Source: a virus. From it: DNA of 64,000 nucleotides. The DNA lies in the IMG/VR virus record IMGVR_UViG_3300045988_068671, positions 20,518 to 84,517 of that record; one strand, given 5' to 3'. Positions 2,824 to 59,493 of this stretch are shown one piece after another. Numbering within the stretch: the first letter of the stretch is position 1; each line of letters starts with the position of its first letter. The position numbers were made by a program, and so were the translations under genes. Below the pieces are notes generated by a model. That model was not told the origin of the DNA, made no database searches, and saw nothing but the letters and a program-made list of their open reading frames with translations.

Positions 2824-4689
2824 TTAAAATATTAATTGTTCATTTTCTCCATCTACCTCTACACTAGAACCTGGCTATAAAGCGTCTATCTTTTTCTACA
2901 ATTCGGCTACGGCCTAGCTAATTAGTTCTTCTACCTCAGCTTTGGTGTAGTATCTCTCTATAAGATATTCGCTCCTAACATATCCAGTATCTTGTAAATC
3001 TTTTTCTCCATAGGTGCAATAATAAGTATCTTCTTCAGTCTTACTATTCTCAACTAGGTCATCATAATCAGCTTGTGGTAAGCATACAAGTTTTGGTACT
3101 TCTTCAGTAATAGCAACTTGCTTGCCTCCAGCAAATAGCCTGTTATCTTCTGTGGTAAGTTTAACAGAACTCTCAATAACTTGCTCAGTTCCTGTTTCCT
3201 CAGAAGGTTCTCCAGTTGTTCCCTATTGTACTTCTTTTTCTCCAATTTTCTAAATAGTAATATCAGAAGTTTCTACTGATGTAGATTTCAAAAGCTCAGT
3301 GCTAAATTCTTTAGCAGCAGCAGCCTAATCATCCTGATATTTTTTCTAGGTAACAAATATGAAATCATCATCTCCGGTTTCAGGAGAGTCTCCCCTTAAA
3401 CTTTCTTTTGTTACGTAATCTTCGGCTATCTAATCTGATAAATCAGATAATGACTATTGAGTAGCATAAGTAGACTGAGCATTTTCCTTAGTAAGAAATT
3501 TGTCATCAACCTGCTAAATAGTATAATAAGCCTTAATATCTTCTGTAGTAACGTAGTTTCCAAGTTTTTGCAAACCTTGAACTATTTCATCAATCTACTT
3601 CTTGGAGTAATAATTTGTAGCAACCCAGGACTGATATTGATTGGTAGTATGATAATTCTAATCCAAATATTCCTTAGTAATATAAACCTTTGCATCATTT
3701 GTGACGTCATATACATAGTAATATGTATCAGGCTCTACCGTCCCTTCCTCTACTAACTTTAGATACTCTTCTTCAGTTAATGTTACTAAGTTCGGAATAT
3801 CCGATTCAGTAGCAATCTAATCTTCACCTATAAATAATCCTTCAGACCTAACGTCTACTACTAACTAGCTCTCTCCCTCTACTACAGGAGATTTTATCTA
3901 TCCAACAGTGATGCTTTCTAAGGAACCATCTCCATCTACCTTTAAAGTCTTATCTAGCTCATCTTGAATAGCCTATTGGTCTTCGTCATACTATTTCTTT
4001 GTAACAAAGACAAAATCATCTCCTTCCATTCCTTCTCCTCTAAGACTTTCTTTGGTAACAAATATGTCATCAGTTTCTTCCTTAGTATAATGGTTAGATA
4101 AGGCTTTAGATAACAAGGACTCTGGGTCCTCTAAATCTAGATCAGTTTTAGGGGCATAATTCTCAGTTAACTCTTCAAGGGTAGCATACTTGGAAAGGTT
4201 AGAGATTGTCTAGTCTAAATCCGTTCTAATCTGTACGACAGTAGTATTTAGAGCTTTCTATTTCAACTATTCCTCTATCTTTTTACCCCATTCTGCTGAT
4301 AAGTAAAACTAATCATCATCTAGGCTGTCTTCATATATATAATAATATGTTTCTGCATGAAGATATGTTTTATCTTCGTCTATAGGTTTAAAATCTTCTG
4401 TGGTATTTTTAGACCATTCCTTATATTCAGCCTCTGTACAGGTGATTATCTAAATAGATTCATAAGAAGCTTTCCAACCTTCTTTGTATTTAATCTTAGA
4501 CTTATCTACTAGCATATAAATATTTCCGTTATCTATATTTGAAACGGTCATGCCTTGATAAGCATATTTCTCCGGAATAGAATATAATTCGTCTAAATTA
4601 TCGACTACTGTTCTATTATCAAGAGGTTTAGGAGTTTCTACGGTTAAAGCAACACCTAATGTAGCATCACCTGTATATTTAAATGCCAT
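2824..4689 (-). CDS. tail-fibre-like repeat protein (about 621 aa) with many in-frame TAG
   Basis: repeated motifs (EEYLKLVEEGTVEPDTYYYVYD / EEVPKLVCLPQADYDDLVE...TYYC); ORF piece 4450-4689 ends at TAG; length divisible by 3. Confidence 0.55.
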
Positions 4690-20278: not shown

Positions 20279-21071
20279 CACGACTCTCTCGTGTATAAAT
20301 AAGTCAAACGTGCAACTCTAAGGTATTACGAGTATAAATAAAATGCCCATATGAACTCCATCATTGGAACATTGGTCAACGGAGAAATCAACAACAAAAC
20401 AAAAAAAAATCAAAACCGAGTTAACTTTTGTAGTAGTTTTAGTTTTTATGTCTGGCTGATAGGAAAGACTATCATTTCTTTTGAAAATTCAGTTTCACAA
20501 AAGAAAATATGGGCAAGTAAGGAGAAGAATGTTCCACAAACTCAAAGGCAGATTTTCCTACTTTTTCCAGTTTTCAAAAAATCGCCAGTAGGACGAGTTT
20601 TATAACTCATACTACAATGATTATTTACTCTAACATTAGCCTATAAAAAGGCAACAAAAAGCGGGGTTACGCAGATAGCCCAATATCCGAAAATAACTGC
20701 TATTAATGAAAATGAGAGTTCGCAAACTTATCTCATGAGTAAGGAGGATTGAGCTATAAGATTGGTCACTTATAGCAATATATGAAAGTACTGCTGACAT
20801 ACCAGTAGACCATGTATGTCATATTTTTATATGTTATGCAATTGTATTAGAAGTTGCCTGGTATAAGCCGCTAGATTAATAAGGCTAGCTGATAAGAGGA
20901 TACCTCATAAGGGTATATTTCCTACCTCGAACTCAGTCGCAAGAATATGGATTAGCTACCTATATTCTTAGTGAACGTTAGTAACGTAGCTATTTGATTT
21001 TCAGTATAGGAAACTGAGAATTAAGTAGTTGAATAACTCTCTATCTTATACTAGTTGCCAAGATAGAGTTT

Positions 21072-52735: not shown

Positions 52736-53197
52736 ATGAGTAATTTAGAGGTCTTTACTGACGGAGCTTTTAGTTCATCTAGAAATACAGGAGGAGTAGG
52801 AGTTGTATTCGTAATTGATGGGAAAAAATCCTATGAATTTAGCAAGATGATTCCAAATACTACTAACAACAAATGTGAGTTGTTAGCTGTAATATATGCT
52901 CTCAATGCAGTAAGCCGTAAGATAGAATCTCTTACTATCTATTCAGATTCTCAGTATATCATAGGATGTGCTACAAAAGGATGGAAAAGAAAAAAGAATG
53001 TAGAGTTGTGGAACTTATATGACAAGGTTTTTGCTAAGGCAAGCCAGTTTTGCCCTGACATAAAATTTTGTTGGGTTAAGGGACATACTTCAAATTCTGA
53101 TTTCTCTTCTGAGATGAATAATTTAGCAGATAAATTAGCAGTTGAAGCAAGTCAAGAATATGAAACTAAGAAAGAACAAAAACAAGAGACTCATTAA
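52736..53197 (+). CDS. rnhA: ribonuclease HI
   Basis: TDGA...ELLAV...YSDSQY...WVKGH...NNLADKLA. Confidence 0.7.
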   Translation: MSNLEVFTDGAFSSSRNTGGVGVVFVIDGKKSYEFSKMIPNTTNNKCELLAVIYALNAVSRKIESLTIYSDSQYIIGCATKGWKRKKNVELWNLYDKVFAKASQFCPDIKFCWVKGHTSNSDFSSEMNNLADKLAVEASQEYETKKEQKQETH

Positions 53198-53592: not shown

Positions 53593-54609
53593 ATGAAGAG
53601 AATTTTTAGTATTATTTGTTTGTGTTTGATGTGTGCATTTGCTAGCGCACAAGTTGTTGAGACTGGAAGTATGAAGGATAACTGGTATATTTCTGGTAAT
53701 GTTGGAACTACTATTTGGGATAACCATAGAAGTTGGGCAGAACCAAATGATGTACTAGTAAACATTGCTATTGGTAAGGAGATTACTCCTATCTTTGGCT
53801 TGGAGTTAGACATGATGGCTGGAATGAACCAAGGAAATAAAACATTCTTTGATTCACATAATTTGACAGCTAACGTTACTACCAATCTTACTAACCTGAT
53901 ATGTGGATATAACGGAGATAGACGTCTGTTTGAGCCTATATTAATCATTGGTGCTGGTTGGTATCATACTTATGGAGGTGTCTATAATAATGTATCCGCC
54001 CGTGGAGCCGTTAGATGTAACTTTAATATCTCTAATAGATGGGCATTAAATGTTACTCCTGAGTATATGTTACTTCCCAAGACTTCCCCTCTGAATCATG
54101 AGTTTAACATCTATATTGGTGCTACCTATCGCTTTAAGTCTAGCAAAGGGGACTTTCCAATTATGAAGTTGTATAGTGATGCCGAGGTTGAAAGCCTAAA
54201 CGCTTCTATTAATGAGTTGAGAGCCAAGAATGAGGAACTTATGGCTCGTAAACCAATAGAAATTGTTAAGACGGACACAATCGAAATTACTAAAGTAGAG
54301 CTTTTGACTCCAAAAATTCAATTCCTTCAAAATTCTTCAGAGATTTCTAAAACTTCCAATGTGGCTGTCTCAGAACTAGCTTCCTATATTTCTAATAGTG
54401 GAAAAACTTATGTGATTGAGGGATATGCTTCGGAAGAAGGTCCAGAAGAGTTTAATAATAACCTTGCTGTAGCTAGGGCAGAATCTATGAAGAAGGCTCT
54501 GATTAGCTATGGTGCTCCAGAGGATAAGTTGGTTGTTAAGGGATGTGGAATTACCACTGAATTTGGAGATAATGAATTTAATCGTATCGTAATAATTTCT
54601 GAACAATGA
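53593..54609 (+). CDS. outer-membrane OmpA-family protein (signal peptide, OmpA-like C-terminus)
   Basis: VIEGYASEEGPEEFNNNLAVARAESMKKAL. Confidence 0.6.
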   Translation: MKRIFSIICLCLMCAFASAQVVETGSMKDNWYISGNVGTTIWDNHRSWAEPNDVLVNIAIGKEITPIFGLELDMMAGMNQGNKTFFDSHNLTANVTTNLTNLICGYNGDRRLFEPILIIGAGWYHTYGGVYNNVSARGAVRCNFNISNRWALNVTPEYMLLPKTSPLNHEFNIYIGATYRFKSSKGDFPIMKLYSDAEVESLNASINELRAKNEELMARKPIEIVKTDTIEITKVELLTPKIQFLQNSSEISKTSNVAVSELASYISNSGKTYVIEGYASEEGPEEFNNNLAVARAESMKKALISYGAPEDKLVVKGCGITTEFGDNEFNRIVIISEQ

Positions 54610-55046: not shown

Positions 55047-55874
55047 ATGAAGACAATTATTAAGCTTTTGTGTGTATTAACTTTGGTGTTTGGCTTGTCT
55101 AGTTGTGGCTACGAGAGAATTGATGCTGGTTACGAAGGCATTAAGGTGAATCTATACGGAGACGGTAAGGGAGTAGACGATGTGTCTCTTGTTACTGGCG
55201 CGGTGTGGTATAATCCTGTTACTACGGCTGTATATGAATATCCTACATTCGTACAGACTGTGGACTATCCTCCTTTCAGTATTAATGCTAAAGATGGATC
55301 ATCATTTACTGTAGACCCTACAATTTCTTTGAAGATTGTTGACGGGAAATCACCAGAAGTATTTAAGAAGTATAGAAAGGAAGATATTGTAGAGGTAATT
55401 AACACTACTTTGTATAATTACGTAAAGAATGCTTTTCGCATTCAGCTGAATAACTATACTACTGATGAACTAGTAAGTAAACGTGAGGAGTTTGAGAAGT
55501 CTATAGAAGATAGACTGTCAAAGGAACTCTTGGCTGAGAATTTTCAGCTTGAACAAATGACTTCTGGTCTTCAATATCCACAGACGCTAGTCAATTCTAT
55601 TGATGCTAAGAATGCTGCAATTCAACAGGCTTTGAAGGCAGAGAATGAAGTTAAGACTATTGAGGCAGAAGCTAAAAAGAAAGTAGCAGCTGCACAAGGA
55701 GAGGCAGAAGCTCTTAAGATTAAGGGTGATGCAGAAGCTGAATATAATAGAAAGATTTCAGCATCTTTGTCAGTTCTCATAGTTCAGCAGGATATGATTA
55801 AGAAGTGGGATGGAAAACTTCCTACTTATGGTCAGGTTCCCACCTTATTTAAAGACGTAGCTAATAACAAATGA
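55047..55874 (+). CDS. SPFH/prohibitin-like lipoprotein (lipobox LSSCG)
   Basis: band-7-like core plus AEAEAKKK coiled coil. Confidence 0.55.
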   Translation: MKTIIKLLCVLTLVFGLSSCGYERIDAGYEGIKVNLYGDGKGVDDVSLVTGAVWYNPVTTAVYEYPTFVQTVDYPPFSINAKDGSSFTVDPTISLKIVDGKSPEVFKKYRKEDIVEVINTTLYNYVKNAFRIQLNNYTTDELVSKREEFEKSIEDRLSKELLAENFQLEQMTSGLQYPQTLVNSIDAKNAAIQQALKAENEVKTIEAEAKKKVAAAQGEAEALKIKGDAEAEYNRKISASLSVLIVQQDMIKKWDGKLPTYGQVPTLFKDVANNK

Positions 55875-56190: not shown

Positions 56191-56715
56191 ATGGAAATTC
56201 TTAAATGTATGTGTATAACACTGAGACATCTTAGGCGAATACTTAGACATAAGTTTTGGGTAGCTTATTACTGTTTTCAGTTAGGTTTATACAAACAGGG
56301 CATCTTGCACGACTTATCTAAATTCGGATGGTATGAGTTCTCTCGTTCTGTAAAATTTTACGATGATGACACATCTCCCTTAAACAAGGAAAAAGAAATT
56401 CTAGGATATTCTAGGTCTTATTTACATCACAGAGGAAGAAATCCACACCATTATGAATACTGGGTAACTAAGCTAGACATTGGCGGTGTTCCAGTGAAGA
56501 TGCCTAAAGAGTATGCTCTAGAATTGGTATGCGATTATCTGGCTGCTGGTAAAGTATACAACGGTAATAGTTTTCAAGGAGAATATAACTGGTGGATTAA
56601 GTATATAAATTCTCCTAGGGCTATCCATCCAGAAACGAAGGAATTTATCACTCAGTGTTTTAAGAATTTAGCTAGTGGTAAAGGCATGAAAAGTTTATTA
56701 ACAATTAGTTATTAA
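56191..56715 (+). CDS. hypothetical protein with possible HD-like His motifs
   Basis: LHDLSKF ... HHRGRNPHH. Confidence 0.3.
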   Translation: MEILKCMCITLRHLRRILRHKFWVAYYCFQLGLYKQGILHDLSKFGWYEFSRSVKFYDDDTSPLNKEKEILGYSRSYLHHRGRNPHHYEYWVTKLDIGGVPVKMPKEYALELVCDYLAAGKVYNGNSFQGEYNWWIKYINSPRAIHPETKEFITQCFKNLASGKGMKSLLTISY

Positions 56716-56728
56716 AATAATTTTTAGA

Positions 56729-58291
56729 ATGGAAATAATTAATGCAACAGATGGCTATAAATTGGGCCACCATAGAATGTATCCAGAAGGTACTGAACAA
56801 GTTTACAGTAATTGGACTCCTAGAAGTAACAAATACTTTCCAGAAGCCACTGAAGGTTCTGTAGTATTCGGAATCCAATATTTAATTAAGAAGTATCTGA
56901 TTGATGAATTTAATCAGAATTTCTTTGGATTGCCCAAAGAGAAAGCTGTAGAAATGTTTTATCGAAGAGTTCATAACTTCGTGGGAATTGAGTCCGTAGG
57001 ATATAAACATATTGAAGCCTTGTATGATTTAGGTTATCTTCCCATTCGCATTAAAGCGTTGCCAGAAGGTTCAATATGCCCTATTAGGGTTCCTATGATG
57101 ACTATTACTAATACAAAGTCAGAGTTCTTCTGGTTAACTAATTATTTAGAGACTTTGATTAGTTGTACTCTGTGGATGCCTTGCACCTCTGCTACTAGAG
57201 CAAGACTCTATAAGAATGAACTTAAAAGACACGCAGTACATACTGGATTTCCAGAAGATGTAAATCTGGATTTCTTGTGTCATGACTTCTCTATGAGAGG
57301 AATGGCTGGTTTAGAGGCCGCTATCATTTCTGGTATGGCACATATGACTTCGTTTGTTGGAAGTGAGACCATTCCAGCTATTGCTGCTCTAGAAGAATAT
57401 TATGGTGCAAATTCTGACAATGAATTAATTGCCGCCACTGTTCCAGCTACAGAACATTCTGTAATGTGTGCTGGTGGAGAAGAGGATGAACTTCAAACCT
57501 TTAAGCGATTAATTAACGAATTGTATCCATCTGGGTTCGTTTCTATAGTTTCTGATACTTGGGACTTCTGGAATGTTATTGAAAACTTCCTTCCCAAATT
57601 AAAGAAGGATATTATGGCTCGTGATGGACGTGTAGTTATTCGTCCAGATAGCGGAGACCCTGTTGATATTATTTGTGGTTTAAGAACTAATCCTCACTTC
57701 CATACTAGAATGAAAGAGGGTAAGTATTATTGTTGCTACGCTCCATTTAACGATGATGCTGAGTATGTAGAAGTTTCAGAAGGTCAATACTACGGTGCTT
57801 ATTATATGCTTGGTAAGATTTTTGGATGGAATACTACTTCTAAGGATTATCGCTATCCTAGTACGAAAATAGGTTTGTTGTATGGTGATTCTATCACTCT
57901 TGAACGTCAGAAGCAAATCTATATGCGACTTGAGAATGCTCATATGGCAGCTTGCAATCTTGTTCTAGGAGTAGGTTCATTTTCATATCAGTATGCAAGT
58001 AGAGATAGCTTAGGCTTTGCAATCAAAGCTACTGCTTGTGTAGTTAATGGAGAATTGAAAGAAATATTCAAACATCCTAAAACAGATGATGGAACTAAAA
58101 ATTCTCTTAAAGGTCTAATTGCTGTCTATCAGGACGTTAATGGCGTTTACTATGCTGAAGACCAGGTAACTCCTGAGGTAGAAAGCGGAGGCTGCTTAGA
58201 GACTGTGTTCGAAGATGGCGTCCTTAAAAAGGAGTACACTCTTAAAGAAATTAGACAGCGGATTAATGAAGGGCTTTATGGAAAGTTTTAA
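56729..58291 (+). CDS. nadV: nicotinamide phosphoribosyltransferase
   Basis: NAMPT-like N-terminus DGYKLGHHRMYPEGT and overall length. Confidence 0.75.
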   Translation: MEIINATDGYKLGHHRMYPEGTEQVYSNWTPRSNKYFPEATEGSVVFGIQYLIKKYLIDEFNQNFFGLPKEKAVEMFYRRVHNFVGIESVGYKHIEALYDLGYLPIRIKALPEGSICPIRVPMMTITNTKSEFFWLTNYLETLISCTLWMPCTSATRARLYKNELKRHAVHTGFPEDVNLDFLCHDFSMRGMAGLEAAIISGMAHMTSFVGSETIPAIAALEEYYGANSDNELIAATVPATEHSVMCAGGEEDELQTFKRLINELYPSGFVSIVSDTWDFWNVIENFLPKLKKDIMARDGRVVIRPDSGDPVDIICGLRTNPHFHTRMKEGKYYCCYAPFNDDAEYVEVSEGQYYGAYYMLGKIFGWNTTSKDYRYPSTKIGLLYGDSITLERQKQIYMRLENAHMAACNLVLGVGSFSYQYASRDSLGFAIKATACVVNGELKEIFKHPKTDDGTKNSLKGLIAVYQDVNGVYYAEDQVTPEVESGGCLETVFEDGVLKKEYTLKEIRQRINEGLYGKF

Positions 58292-58718
58292 CCATCCATT
58301 TGGAAAAGAGGCTTGCAAGAAACGACTATTAGAAGAGTATCATAAATACAGAAAGCTAATAGTCGCTTTCGATTTTGATAATACTATTTTCGATTACCAT
58401 AATACTGGCGGAGATTATAGTTGCGTTATAGAACTACTTAAAGAATGCTCACTTCTAGGTTTTGAAATGATTTTATTCACCACTGATGAAGATGATTATA
58501 AAATTATGGCAAAGCAGACAATTTGTATGCGATTAGGAATAGCAAATATTACTTCTAATACTTTATCTGCTCCAAACATTAGTAGTTCTATATTCTCTAA
58601 ATCTAAGAAACCTTATTACAATATCCTCCTAGATGATAGGGCAGGTCTAGAAGAAAGTTATGAAATCTTAAAATATGTAGTAGATGAAATTAAACTTAAT
58701 CAACAAGGAAATCAGTGA
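58215..58718 (+). CDS. HAD-superfamily phosphatase-like protein
   Basis: FDFDNTI motif. Confidence 0.5.
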   Translation: MASLKRSTLLKKLDSGLMKGFMESFNHPFGKEACKKRLLEEYHKYRKLIVAFDFDNTIFDYHNTGGDYSCVIELLKECSLLGFEMILFTTDEDDYKIMAKQTICMRLGIANITSNTLSAPNISSSIFSKSKKPYYNILLDDRAGLEESYEILKYVVDEIKLNQQGNQ

Positions 58719-59493
58719 AATTAAGTACGATGTTACTAGATTTCCTGATGGAGAGCCTCAGTTTTTCCTTACTGAGGAATTAAACAGAAAGGAATCTATT
58801 GATGTCATTTGTAGAATATCTAATACTGAGGATTTATTCCTCTTAATGCAAGTAGGAGATATTTTAGATAGACAAGAAGTAGAATGGGATTTACATATTA
58901 CTTATTTAATGTCTATGCGTATGGATAGAGTAATGAGTTTTAATCGTCCATTCTCCTTGAAAGTAGTATGTAATATGTTAAATAGCTTAGGCTATAGAAA
59001 CATATATGTTCTTGAGGCACATTCTAGTAGAACTTTTCATCTTCTTGGTGACAGATGTTTACCTTGGGAATTTGGACACTACTCTTGGATTCCAGCCCAA
59101 AGTAATATCGTGTTCCCAGACCATGGGGCGAAGGACAGATATGGAAGTAACTATTCTCACTATGGTTATTTAGTCTTCAAAAAGGAAAGAAATCTAGAGA
59201 CTGGAAGAATTGAGTCCTTTGAAATAGAGGAGTCTAAGAATTGCTACTATTCTACATTTGTGTTCATTGATGACTTGTGTGATGCTGGAGGAACTTTCCT
59301 AGGAGAGCTTAAGGTTCTCAAAGAGAGATATCCAAATAGCAAGTTTATCATAATCGTATGTCATGTAGTTAATGATAAAGGCCTGGTTAATATGTGTAAT
59401 AATTTTGACCAGGTTATTGTATCTAATTCTCATAGGGATATTAATTATCGTCCCGGCAACGAGAACTTAACTGTAATAGACGTTTGTAAATAA
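58684..59493 (+). CDS. prs: ribose-phosphate pyrophosphokinase (PRPP synthetase)-like
   Basis: FPDGE ... VFIDDLCDAGGTF. Confidence 0.65.
   Translation: MKLNLINKEISEIKYDVTRFPDGEPQFFLTEELNRKESIDVICRISNTEDLFLLMQVGDILDRQEVEWDLHITYLMSMRMDRVMSFNRPFSLKVVCNMLNSLGYRNIYVLEAHSSRTFHLLGDRCLPWEFGHYSWIPAQSNIVFPDHGAKDRYGSNYSHYGYLVFKKERNLETGRIESFEIEESKNCYYSTFVFIDDLCDAGGTFLGELKVLKERYPNSKFIIIVCHVVNDKGLVNMCNNFDQVIVSNSHRDINYRPGNENLTVIDVCK

Follow-up and report, generated by a model that had tools for sequence, protein, structure and literature searches.

A NARP1-type NAD+ reconstitution operon with a predicted HAD-superfamily phosphatase between its core genes in a crAss-like gut phage

We analyzed a 64,000-nucleotide (nt) stretch of viral DNA (IMG/VR record IMGVR_UViG_3300045988_068671, positions 20,518 to 84,517; hereafter the window) and found in it three adjoining genes that we read as an extended NARP1 counter-defence operon, in which a HAD-superfamily phosphatase would free ADP-ribose (ADPR) from phosphorylated ADPR. 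We give this overall reading a probability of roughly 45%. The operon would consist of the two NARP1 core genes, encoding nicotinamide ADP-ribose transferase (Namat) and ADP-ribose pyrophosphokinase (Adps), with the HAD gene between them (Table 1). The window belongs to a crAss-like phage with relatives in the Steigviridae (DAC15, DAC17, cr126_1 and cr111_1); its host group is Bacteroides and its habitat is the gut. An earlier interpretation made from the DNA letters (the sequence-only reading) had proposed a NAD+ salvage cluster of a NAMPT-type NadV, a HAD-family hydrolase and a phosphoribosyl pyrophosphate (PRPP) synthetase (Prs). The list of open reading frames (ORFs) contained its three overlapping same-strand genes, and the peptides that it quoted (FDFDNTI, FPDGE and VFIDDLCDAGGTF) were all present in them. 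Its general idea, namely that the phage rebuilds NAD+ by a pathway whose middle enzyme is unusual, was borne out, as a NARP1 core plus a HAD protein; the identities of both outer enzymes had to be revised.

The first protein of the cassette is a member of the NAMPT family, as had been proposed. It matched Pfam PF04095 and PF18127 and phrog_448 (1e-181), and its NCBIfam (NF006629) and PHROG labels are phosphoribosyltransferase. Its best matches in the PDB were 9W5X and 9W5W (E = 4e-150, versus 1e-63 for human NAMPT), which are crystal structures of the SPbetaL1 Namat (PMC12774641). By blastp, it scored 474 bits against SPbetaL1 Namat and 196 bits against human NAMPT. A clamp-helix motif distinguishes Namats: in GSX-phi-X-phi-X-phi-TRD, the X positions are aromatic and stack on the adenine of the pyrophosphorylated ADPR (ADPR-PP) (PMC12774641). 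The corresponding segment of the window protein is GSFSYQYASRD; its X residues are F, Y and Y, and S stands in place of T. It reads GSFTYQYNTRD, GSFTYQHNTRD and GSYTYQYVTCD in the characterized Namats of SPbetaL1, DyoEdafos and ICP1, respectively, and GSGGGLLQKLTRD in human NAMPT. A motif survey showed that the GSX clamp pattern is shared by Namats of crAss, Bacillus, Vibrio and Mycobacterium phages. In the Namat clamp loop, the stacking residue is either an Arg at position 3 or the residue at position 4 that follows Lys or Tyr (PMC12774641); with loop boundaries inferred from the alignment, the window protein has SNKY, resembling the Lys-then-aromatic rule, where SPbetaL1 has TSRV. Because the clamp motif is present and the closest relatives are characterized Namats, the first protein is, judged by its sequence, a Namat and not a NadV. 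The window Namat also carries an insertion of about 30 amino acids (aa) (LRTNPHFHTRMKEGKYYCCYAPFNDDAEYVEV...; window 57690-57800, residues ~322-356) after its RPDSGDP loop; the insertion is shorter in other crAss-like Namats.

Domain searches, on which the sequence-only reading had staked both its NAMPT and its Prs assignment, supported the former and reached no curated Prs model for the third protein. This protein is Prs-like, but it scored only 59.6 bits against TIGR01251 (cut-off 113) and 50 bits against NF002095 (cut-off 296), and 17.2 bits against Pfam Pribosyltran (cut-off 26.3). Instead, it matched phrog_619 (1e-51), and in tblastn searches it matched the characterized Adps genes of DyoEdafos, SPbetaL1 and ICP1. 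By blastp, it scored 63-83 bits against these three Adps proteins, versus 40-49 bits against the Prs of B. subtilis and E. coli. Structures of ICP1 Adps have defined its functional residues, its remodelled PP loop and its catalytic hairpin (PMC13586617). The window protein has kept F18, R87, H121, D161, K185, D212, D213, C215, D216 and F221 of these residues, with S220 replaced by T; F221 and C215 set it apart from the canonical Prs of B. subtilis and E. coli, and its PP loop is of the Adps type. Given the Prs scores below cut-off, the Adps-type PP loop and the better scores against Adps than against Prs, we assign the third protein as an Adps and not a PRPP synthetase. Weak phosphoribosyltransferase matches of this protein in a PADLOC scan were put down to generic similarity of the fold.

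From these two identities, the core of the locus is very probably NARP1, which leads from ADPR through ADPR-PP to NAD+, and not a NadV and Prs pair working through PRPP and nicotinamide mononucleotide (NMN). In characterized homologues, ADPR and ATP give ADPR-PP, and ADPR-PP and nicotinamide give NAD+ (Osterman et al. 2024, bioRxiv 10.1101/2024.02.11.579819); by homology, we infer the same chemistry for the window enzymes. Only the 441-nt HAD gene lies between the Namat and Adps genes, with overlapping frames, and a NAMPT-like gene adjoining a Prs-like gene is the operational definition of NARP1. Comparison with described phage pathways thus yielded a relative of NARP1 and not the NadV and Prs pathway of the sequence-only reading. 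On that earlier reading, genuine NadV (Nampt) and Prs enzymes would make NMN from nicotinamide in a NARP2-like manner, and the HAD enzyme would be an NMN or nucleotide phosphatase. The phosphoribosyltransferase labels of the first protein and the weak Prs similarity of the third speak for it, as does some nicotinamide-PRPP activity that Namat reportedly retains in vitro. Nevertheless, we regard it as highly improbable, given the clamp motif and nearest relatives of the first protein and the Prs scores and Adps-specific residues of the third. NARP2 (Nampt and Nmnat) moreover includes an NMN adenylyltransferase (NMNAT), and a motif scan of window ORFs of at least 80 aa, which has low sensitivity, detected no (H/T)xGH nucleotidyltransferase (NMNAT) or Nudix signature in the 64 kb.

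With 143-146 aa, homologues are shorter than the middle protein as read from its longest ORF, and its translation therefore probably starts at M22. From this start, the HAD gene overlaps the Namat stop codon by 14 nt and the Adps start codon by 35 nt, so that the three genes are tightly coupled. The profile assignment that the sequence-only reading had suggested as a check succeeded in part: the protein is of HAD type, but it had no significant Pfam match and only a sub-threshold match to the NCBIfam BT0820 family (NF046079; 20 bits, E = 7e-4, cut-off 165 bits). In an alignment of 40 homologues, the four HAD motifs showed little or no variation (D32, D34 and T36 in FDFDNT; T68; K111; D119/D120), accompanied by a family-specific N-terminal helix (NHPF...RL..EY) and a DYHxxGGDYS flap. 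The features that define the HAD superfamily, namely DxDxT, S/T, K and DD on a Rossmannoid fold, are thus all present, and the enzyme is capless. Because motifs and fold are intact, we predict from sequence and model that it is a Mg2+-dependent phosphomonoesterase.

Sequence and profile searches of the PDB with the HAD protein gave nothing significant, the best match being BT_0820 (2OBB; E = 0.014). At about 20% identity, the BT_0820 family is a structural relative only, and the phage family has in addition its conserved N-terminal helix. Our literature search on BT0820 found no functional data, and the match transfers no function because BT_0820 is without a known substrate. The HAD protein falls into phrog_1238, which is labelled "phosphoheptose isomerase", probably a misnomer. 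The same label stands in RefSeq phage records (L001, L002, L004 and L005), where Namat and Adps appear as Nampt and Prs; other labels on HAD homologues are "polynucleotide kinase", "hydrolase" and "haloacid dehalogenase type 3".

We examined the linkage of the HAD gene to NARP1 across genomes. In IMG/VR, the order Namat-HAD-Adps was present in 74 of 77 loci and HAD-Adps in 2 more; 3 of the rest are truncated at contig ends. Namat-HAD-Adps was also the order in the crAss-like GenBank phages cr126_1, cr111_1 and DAC15. The order was Adps-Namat-HAD in the Bacillus phages BPS10C and NotTheCreek (Bastillevirinae), Adps-HAD-Namat in Vibrio phage VPT02 and Aeromonas phage PhAER-3, which have the most remote homologues, and nicotinamidase-Adps-Namat-HAD in Phass-1 (L091 881-4396). 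In the Lak megaphages Lak-B5 (L006) and Lak-A2 (L007), with genomes of 540-550 kb, the HAD gene adjoins Adps, and Namat lies ~100-220 kb off. Among cellular genomes, taken as one genome per species, all three genes occurred at 47 of 76 loci, with every gene order represented, and 4 more loci were partial or truncated. All three window proteins have significant family matches, and the cassette is kept in more than 130 independent loci, far above chance. Because this linkage is conserved, the HAD enzyme appears functionally coupled to NARP1, and it is very likely an accessory phosphatase of the pathway. It is an optional one: a HAD gene was found in 82 phage records, compared with 1373 that have an Adps-like gene (~6%). 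In crAss-like phage cr85_1, Namat is followed directly by Adps, SPbetaL1 and ICP1 are without HAD, and a bacterial Adps and Namat pair from Paenibacillus regenerates NAD+ without a third enzyme.

Several individual loci showed features of their own. The nicotinamidase of Phass-1 is odd, in that it would use up the nicotinamide needed by Namat; the clamp motif of the Phass-1 Namat-like protein was not matched by our regular expression, and the translation may be imperfect in this code-15 clade. The cassette is also mosaic. In comparison with the window, one type of contig (L037) has an identical Namat (100%), a HAD of ~74% and an Adps of 66% identity, and another (L008) has 99-100% for HAD and 98.5% for Adps but only 90% for Namat. 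The mosaic of identities across L008-L080 therefore implies that recombination between closely related gut phages has had breakpoints within the cassette. At L076 5986-6934, the HAD frame appears broken, with an ORF of 78 aa versus ~142 aa aligned by tblastn, and the cr85_1 Namat (L088 2995-4515) is annotated as two coding sequences (2995-3147 and 3169-4515). These split frames could reflect pseudogenization, recoding or assembly error.

An accessory phosphatase has already been described for NARP1. RES-domain proteins called aRES split NAD+ by phosphorolysis to ADPR-1''-phosphate (ADPR-1''P), a product that NARP1 cannot use (Osterman et al. 2026, bioRxiv 10.64898/2026.01.28.702374). In 15% of NARP1 operons, a Macro-domain ADPR-1''P phosphatase (Adpp), usually located between Adps and Namat, overcomes aRES (bioRxiv 10.64898/2026.01.28.702374). 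We found both kinds of gene in this slot in two T5-like Vibrio phages of one subfamily (Ermolyevavirinae), phi 3 and VPT02, which have syntenic flanks around NARP1 and share 60% identity in RNA ligase, 45% in Adps, 63% in Namat and 33-43% in two further genes. Between Adps and Namat, phi 3 has a Macro gene (E = 2.5e-46 with an Adpp hidden Markov model (HMM)) and VPT02 has a HAD gene (E = 1.9e-49), with no cross-similarity between the two. An HMM derived from 8 Adpp sequences in the literature gave nothing at E<=1 in the 64-kb window. No Macro ORF was present in 87 HAD loci, and only 1 of ~240 HAD loci had one.

The hosts also differ. Table S1 of the Macro study contains no Bacillus, Bacteroides or Prevotella term, and the hosts in the first of its four parts are Proteobacteria (bioRxiv 10.64898/2026.01.28.702374), whereas the HAD operons occur in phages of Bacteroidota and Bacillota and in Lak phages. 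The commonest carriers of aRES are Bacillota (10.4%) and Bacteroidota (4.7%), the same groups that the phages with HAD operons infect, and its listed occurrences include B. thetaiotaomicron, B. cereus, Paenibacillus, Cohnella, Tenacibaculum and Mucilaginibacter. The presence of a phosphatase in the same operon, the slot shared by phi 3 and VPT02, the near-absence of Macro from HAD loci and the host distribution together suggest, by analogy, that the HAD enzyme does the work of the Macro-domain Adpp without being homologous to it.

The extended operon may operate as follows. A defence NADase would split NAD+ into nicotinamide and ADPR, Adps would move pyrophosphate from ATP onto ADPR to form ADPR-PP, and Namat would couple ADPR-PP with nicotinamide to re-form NAD+. 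The HAD enzyme would strip the phosphate from a phosphorylated ADPR that Adps cannot use, regenerating ADPR, and would in this way probably widen the range of NAD+ breakdown products that the phage can recycle. The prime candidate substrate would be ADPR-1''P, which RES-domain NAD+ phosphorylases (aRES, for example) produce, and we propose this specific substrate tentatively, by analogy with Adpp. HAD enzymes can hydrolyze anomeric sugar-1-phosphates, as E. coli YihX does with glucose-1-phosphate. Three other activities were set aside on general knowledge of the HAD family: inorganic pyrophosphatase, since the host pyrophosphatase should be abundant; ADPR-PP hydrolase, since such hydrolysis would presumably be futile; and degradation of an immune signal, since HAD phosphatases are expected to act on phosphomonoesters and not on glycosidic or diester bonds.

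Several observations weigh against ADPR-1''P dephosphorylation as the role of the HAD enzyme. The assignment draws on analogy and gene context, the structural neighbours of the protein are only BT_0820 and generic HAD phosphatases, and the complementary host distribution is confounded by phylogeny. A phage-like metagenome-assembled contig (L163 3139-5200), the sole locus found with both genes, encodes an Adpp-like Macro protein (E = 2e-35), Adps, two small ORFs and a HAD cut by the contig end; the co-occurrence argues against simple redundancy and hints at distinct specificities. At 25 of the 76 cellular loci, the HAD gene stands alone in no common neighbourhood. Finally, fusion to a nucleoside 2-deoxyribosyltransferase-like domain (PF15891, DUF4406) was seen in 4 of 20 long members, which would suit a family serving nucleotide- or ribose-phosphate-type substrates more broadly. 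The fused members are among P0201, P0230, P0179, P0125 and P0175, one of which carries a GIY-YIG nuclease domain; the two with readable contigs sit in phage-like settings outside NARP1 (P0201 beside YopX and DNA ligase).

These points leave room for two other roles. The HAD enzyme might be coupled to NARP1 without being a mere stand-in for Macro Adpp, and dephosphorylate a different NAD(P)+ product: the 2'-phosphate of 2'-phospho-ADPR, left by NADases acting on NADP+, or of NADP+ itself, or a phosphorylated ADPR from an undescribed defence enzyme. Many defence NADases also cleave NADP+. The second-best structural neighbour of the HAD protein is the 3'-phosphatase domain of T4 Pnkp, which removes ribose 2'/3'-type phosphates, the pairing of Macro Adpp and HAD in L163 suggests non-identical roles, and the strong linkage to NARP1 would suit any ADPR-yielding substrate. 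We nevertheless consider this unlikely: no sequence or structural feature marks a 2'-phosphate specificity, the in situ exchange of Macro Adpp for HAD favours the same function, and a drain on NADP(H) could be expected to hurt deoxynucleoside triphosphate synthesis by the phage.

Alternatively, the enzyme might be a (deoxy)nucleotide phosphatase, serving the nucleotide pool in general or destroying a nucleotide that triggers defence. The precedent is MisB, a host HAD phosphatase that dephosphorylates N6-methyl-dAMP (m6dAMP) in the Metis defence system; the NAD+ cleavage by Metis cannot be reversed by NARP1. Removal of the trigger would block a cleavage of NAD+ to NMN and AMP that NARP1 could not repair. 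The fusions in non-NARP1 phage contexts and the cellular copies standing alone would fit such a role, as would the results of a BFVD fold search, which returned uncharacterized phage HADs and weak-scoring proteins labelled (5'-)nucleotidase. By contrast, similarity to the MisB-type family PF13419 was confined to 2 of 40 family members (E = 0.12), and no defence-system model in the PADLOC scan matched the HAD protein. It is also capless, and HADs that act on small nucleotides usually have a cap. Moreover, a generic nucleotidase would hardly keep its place next to these two genes of NARP1, Adps and Namat, in many phage lineages and in at least five different arrangements, or take the slot of Macro Adpp. 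A nucleotidase therefore seems doubtful to us, and an accessory phosphatase that returns ADPR to NARP1 is the reading that we prefer.

In comparison with described systems, the window locus is like NARP1 in that both core enzymes are adjacent and co-oriented in a phage genome, with the Namat clamp motif and the PP loop and catalytic residues of Adps kept. It differs by the third gene embedded between the core genes with overlapping frames, by the order, with Namat first and Adps last where SPbetaL1, ICP1 and DyoEdafos have the reverse, and by the Namat insertion, which these three phages lack. It resembles NARP1-AP (Adps-Macro Adpp-Namat) in that the gene of a small phosphatase is embedded in NARP1 to make an operon of three genes, and the HAD gene takes the same place between Adps and Namat in VPT02 and PhAER-3, the occupant being Macro or HAD in related T5-like vibriophages. 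However, the predicted phosphatase of the window has a HAD fold, with an Asp nucleophile and Mg2+, unrelated to Macro (PF14519, PF01661 and PF20016; Poa1p-like). A further extension of NARP1, RyDEP (Adps-RyR-domain glycosidase-Namat), cleaves cyclic ADPR signals to linear ADPR (PMC13232231). There, too, an accessory enzyme between Adps and Namat feeds a defence-derived ADPR derivative to NARP1, but it is a glycosidase and unrelated in fold to the predicted phosphomonoesterase of the window. Our literature search found no paper that joins Namat, Adps or NARP1 with a HAD enzyme in this role, the sole joint occurrence being the unrelated host MisB. Thus, NARP1, NARP1-AP and the RyDEP extension were known, and the new element is NARP1 with a HAD-type associated phosphatase.

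The neighbourhood of the cassette includes a DUF5662 protein gene immediately upstream of Namat, as well as genes for RNase H, an OmpA-like outer-membrane beta-barrel protein and an SPFH/Band 7 protein; an SPFH gene likewise lies near the cassette in cr126_1. The DUF5662 protein has HD-like histidine motifs (HDLSK and HH..NPHH). Its gene keeps this position upstream of Namat in 49 related loci and lies between HAD and Adps in L076. A PDB search with the protein gave no match, only 10 phage records contained DUF5662, with no annotation on any of those matches, and a single-sequence AlphaFold2 model was unusable (predicted local distance difference test score 41). The protein could be a further accessory or a mere neighbour. 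Promoter-like sites at 54.5-60.5 kb were not in excess (18 versus 22 in shuffled sequences), and all terminator-like matches in that interval were inside genes and of no help in delimiting the operon.

Table 1. Coordinates of the cassette genes and their upstream neighbours in the window
Feature	Position	Strand	Size and basis
Namat (nicotinamide ADP-ribose transferase, NAMPT fold; second NARP1 enzyme, by homology)	56729..58291	+	520 aa; PF04095, PF18127, phrog_448, PDB, clamp motif
HAD-superfamily phosphatase (predicted; accessory, inside NARP1 operon)	58278..58718	+	146 aa from M22 (probable start); longest ORF from 58215 = 167 aa
Adps (ADP-ribose pyrophosphokinase, PRPS-like fold; first NARP1 enzyme, by homology)	58684..59493	+	269 aa; phrog_619, tblastn, blastp, residue mapping
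DUF5662 protein	56191-56715	+	PF18907, E 1.5e-28; 13 nt upstream of Namat
SPFH/Band 7 protein	55047-55874		
OmpA-like outer-membrane beta-barrel protein	53593-54609		C-terminal OmpA domain, signal-peptide-like N-terminus
RNase H	52736-53197		

Few bacterial anti-phage strategies are as common as NAD+ depletion, which phages counter mainly through NARP1. The labels NadV/Nampt, "phosphoheptose isomerase" and Prs in RefSeq and PHROGs hide this pathway in crAss-like and Bacillus phages. A third unrelated accessory, after Macro Adpp and RyDEP, would show that enzymes returning off-pathway NAD+ fragments to NARP1 have been recruited repeatedly. Both the crAss-like and Lak phages, the most abundant of the human gut, and the Bacillus phages have kept the HAD gene, and aRES is commonest in the hosts of these phages. 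If the enzyme acted on another substrate, it would be a pointer to unknown defence chemistry. With 2'-phospho-ADPR, the NADP pool would be brought into NAD+ reconstitution, and a different NAD(P)+ product in general would mean that the HAD operons, abundant in gut crAss-like, Lak and Bacillus phages, point to an uncharacterized way in which Bacteroidota and Bacillota deplete NAD(P)+. Should the enzyme act on ADPR-1''P, as we tentatively propose, the operon would be a clear case of convergent counter-defence, and NAD+ phosphorolysis of the RES type would be an important pressure in gut Bacteroidota.

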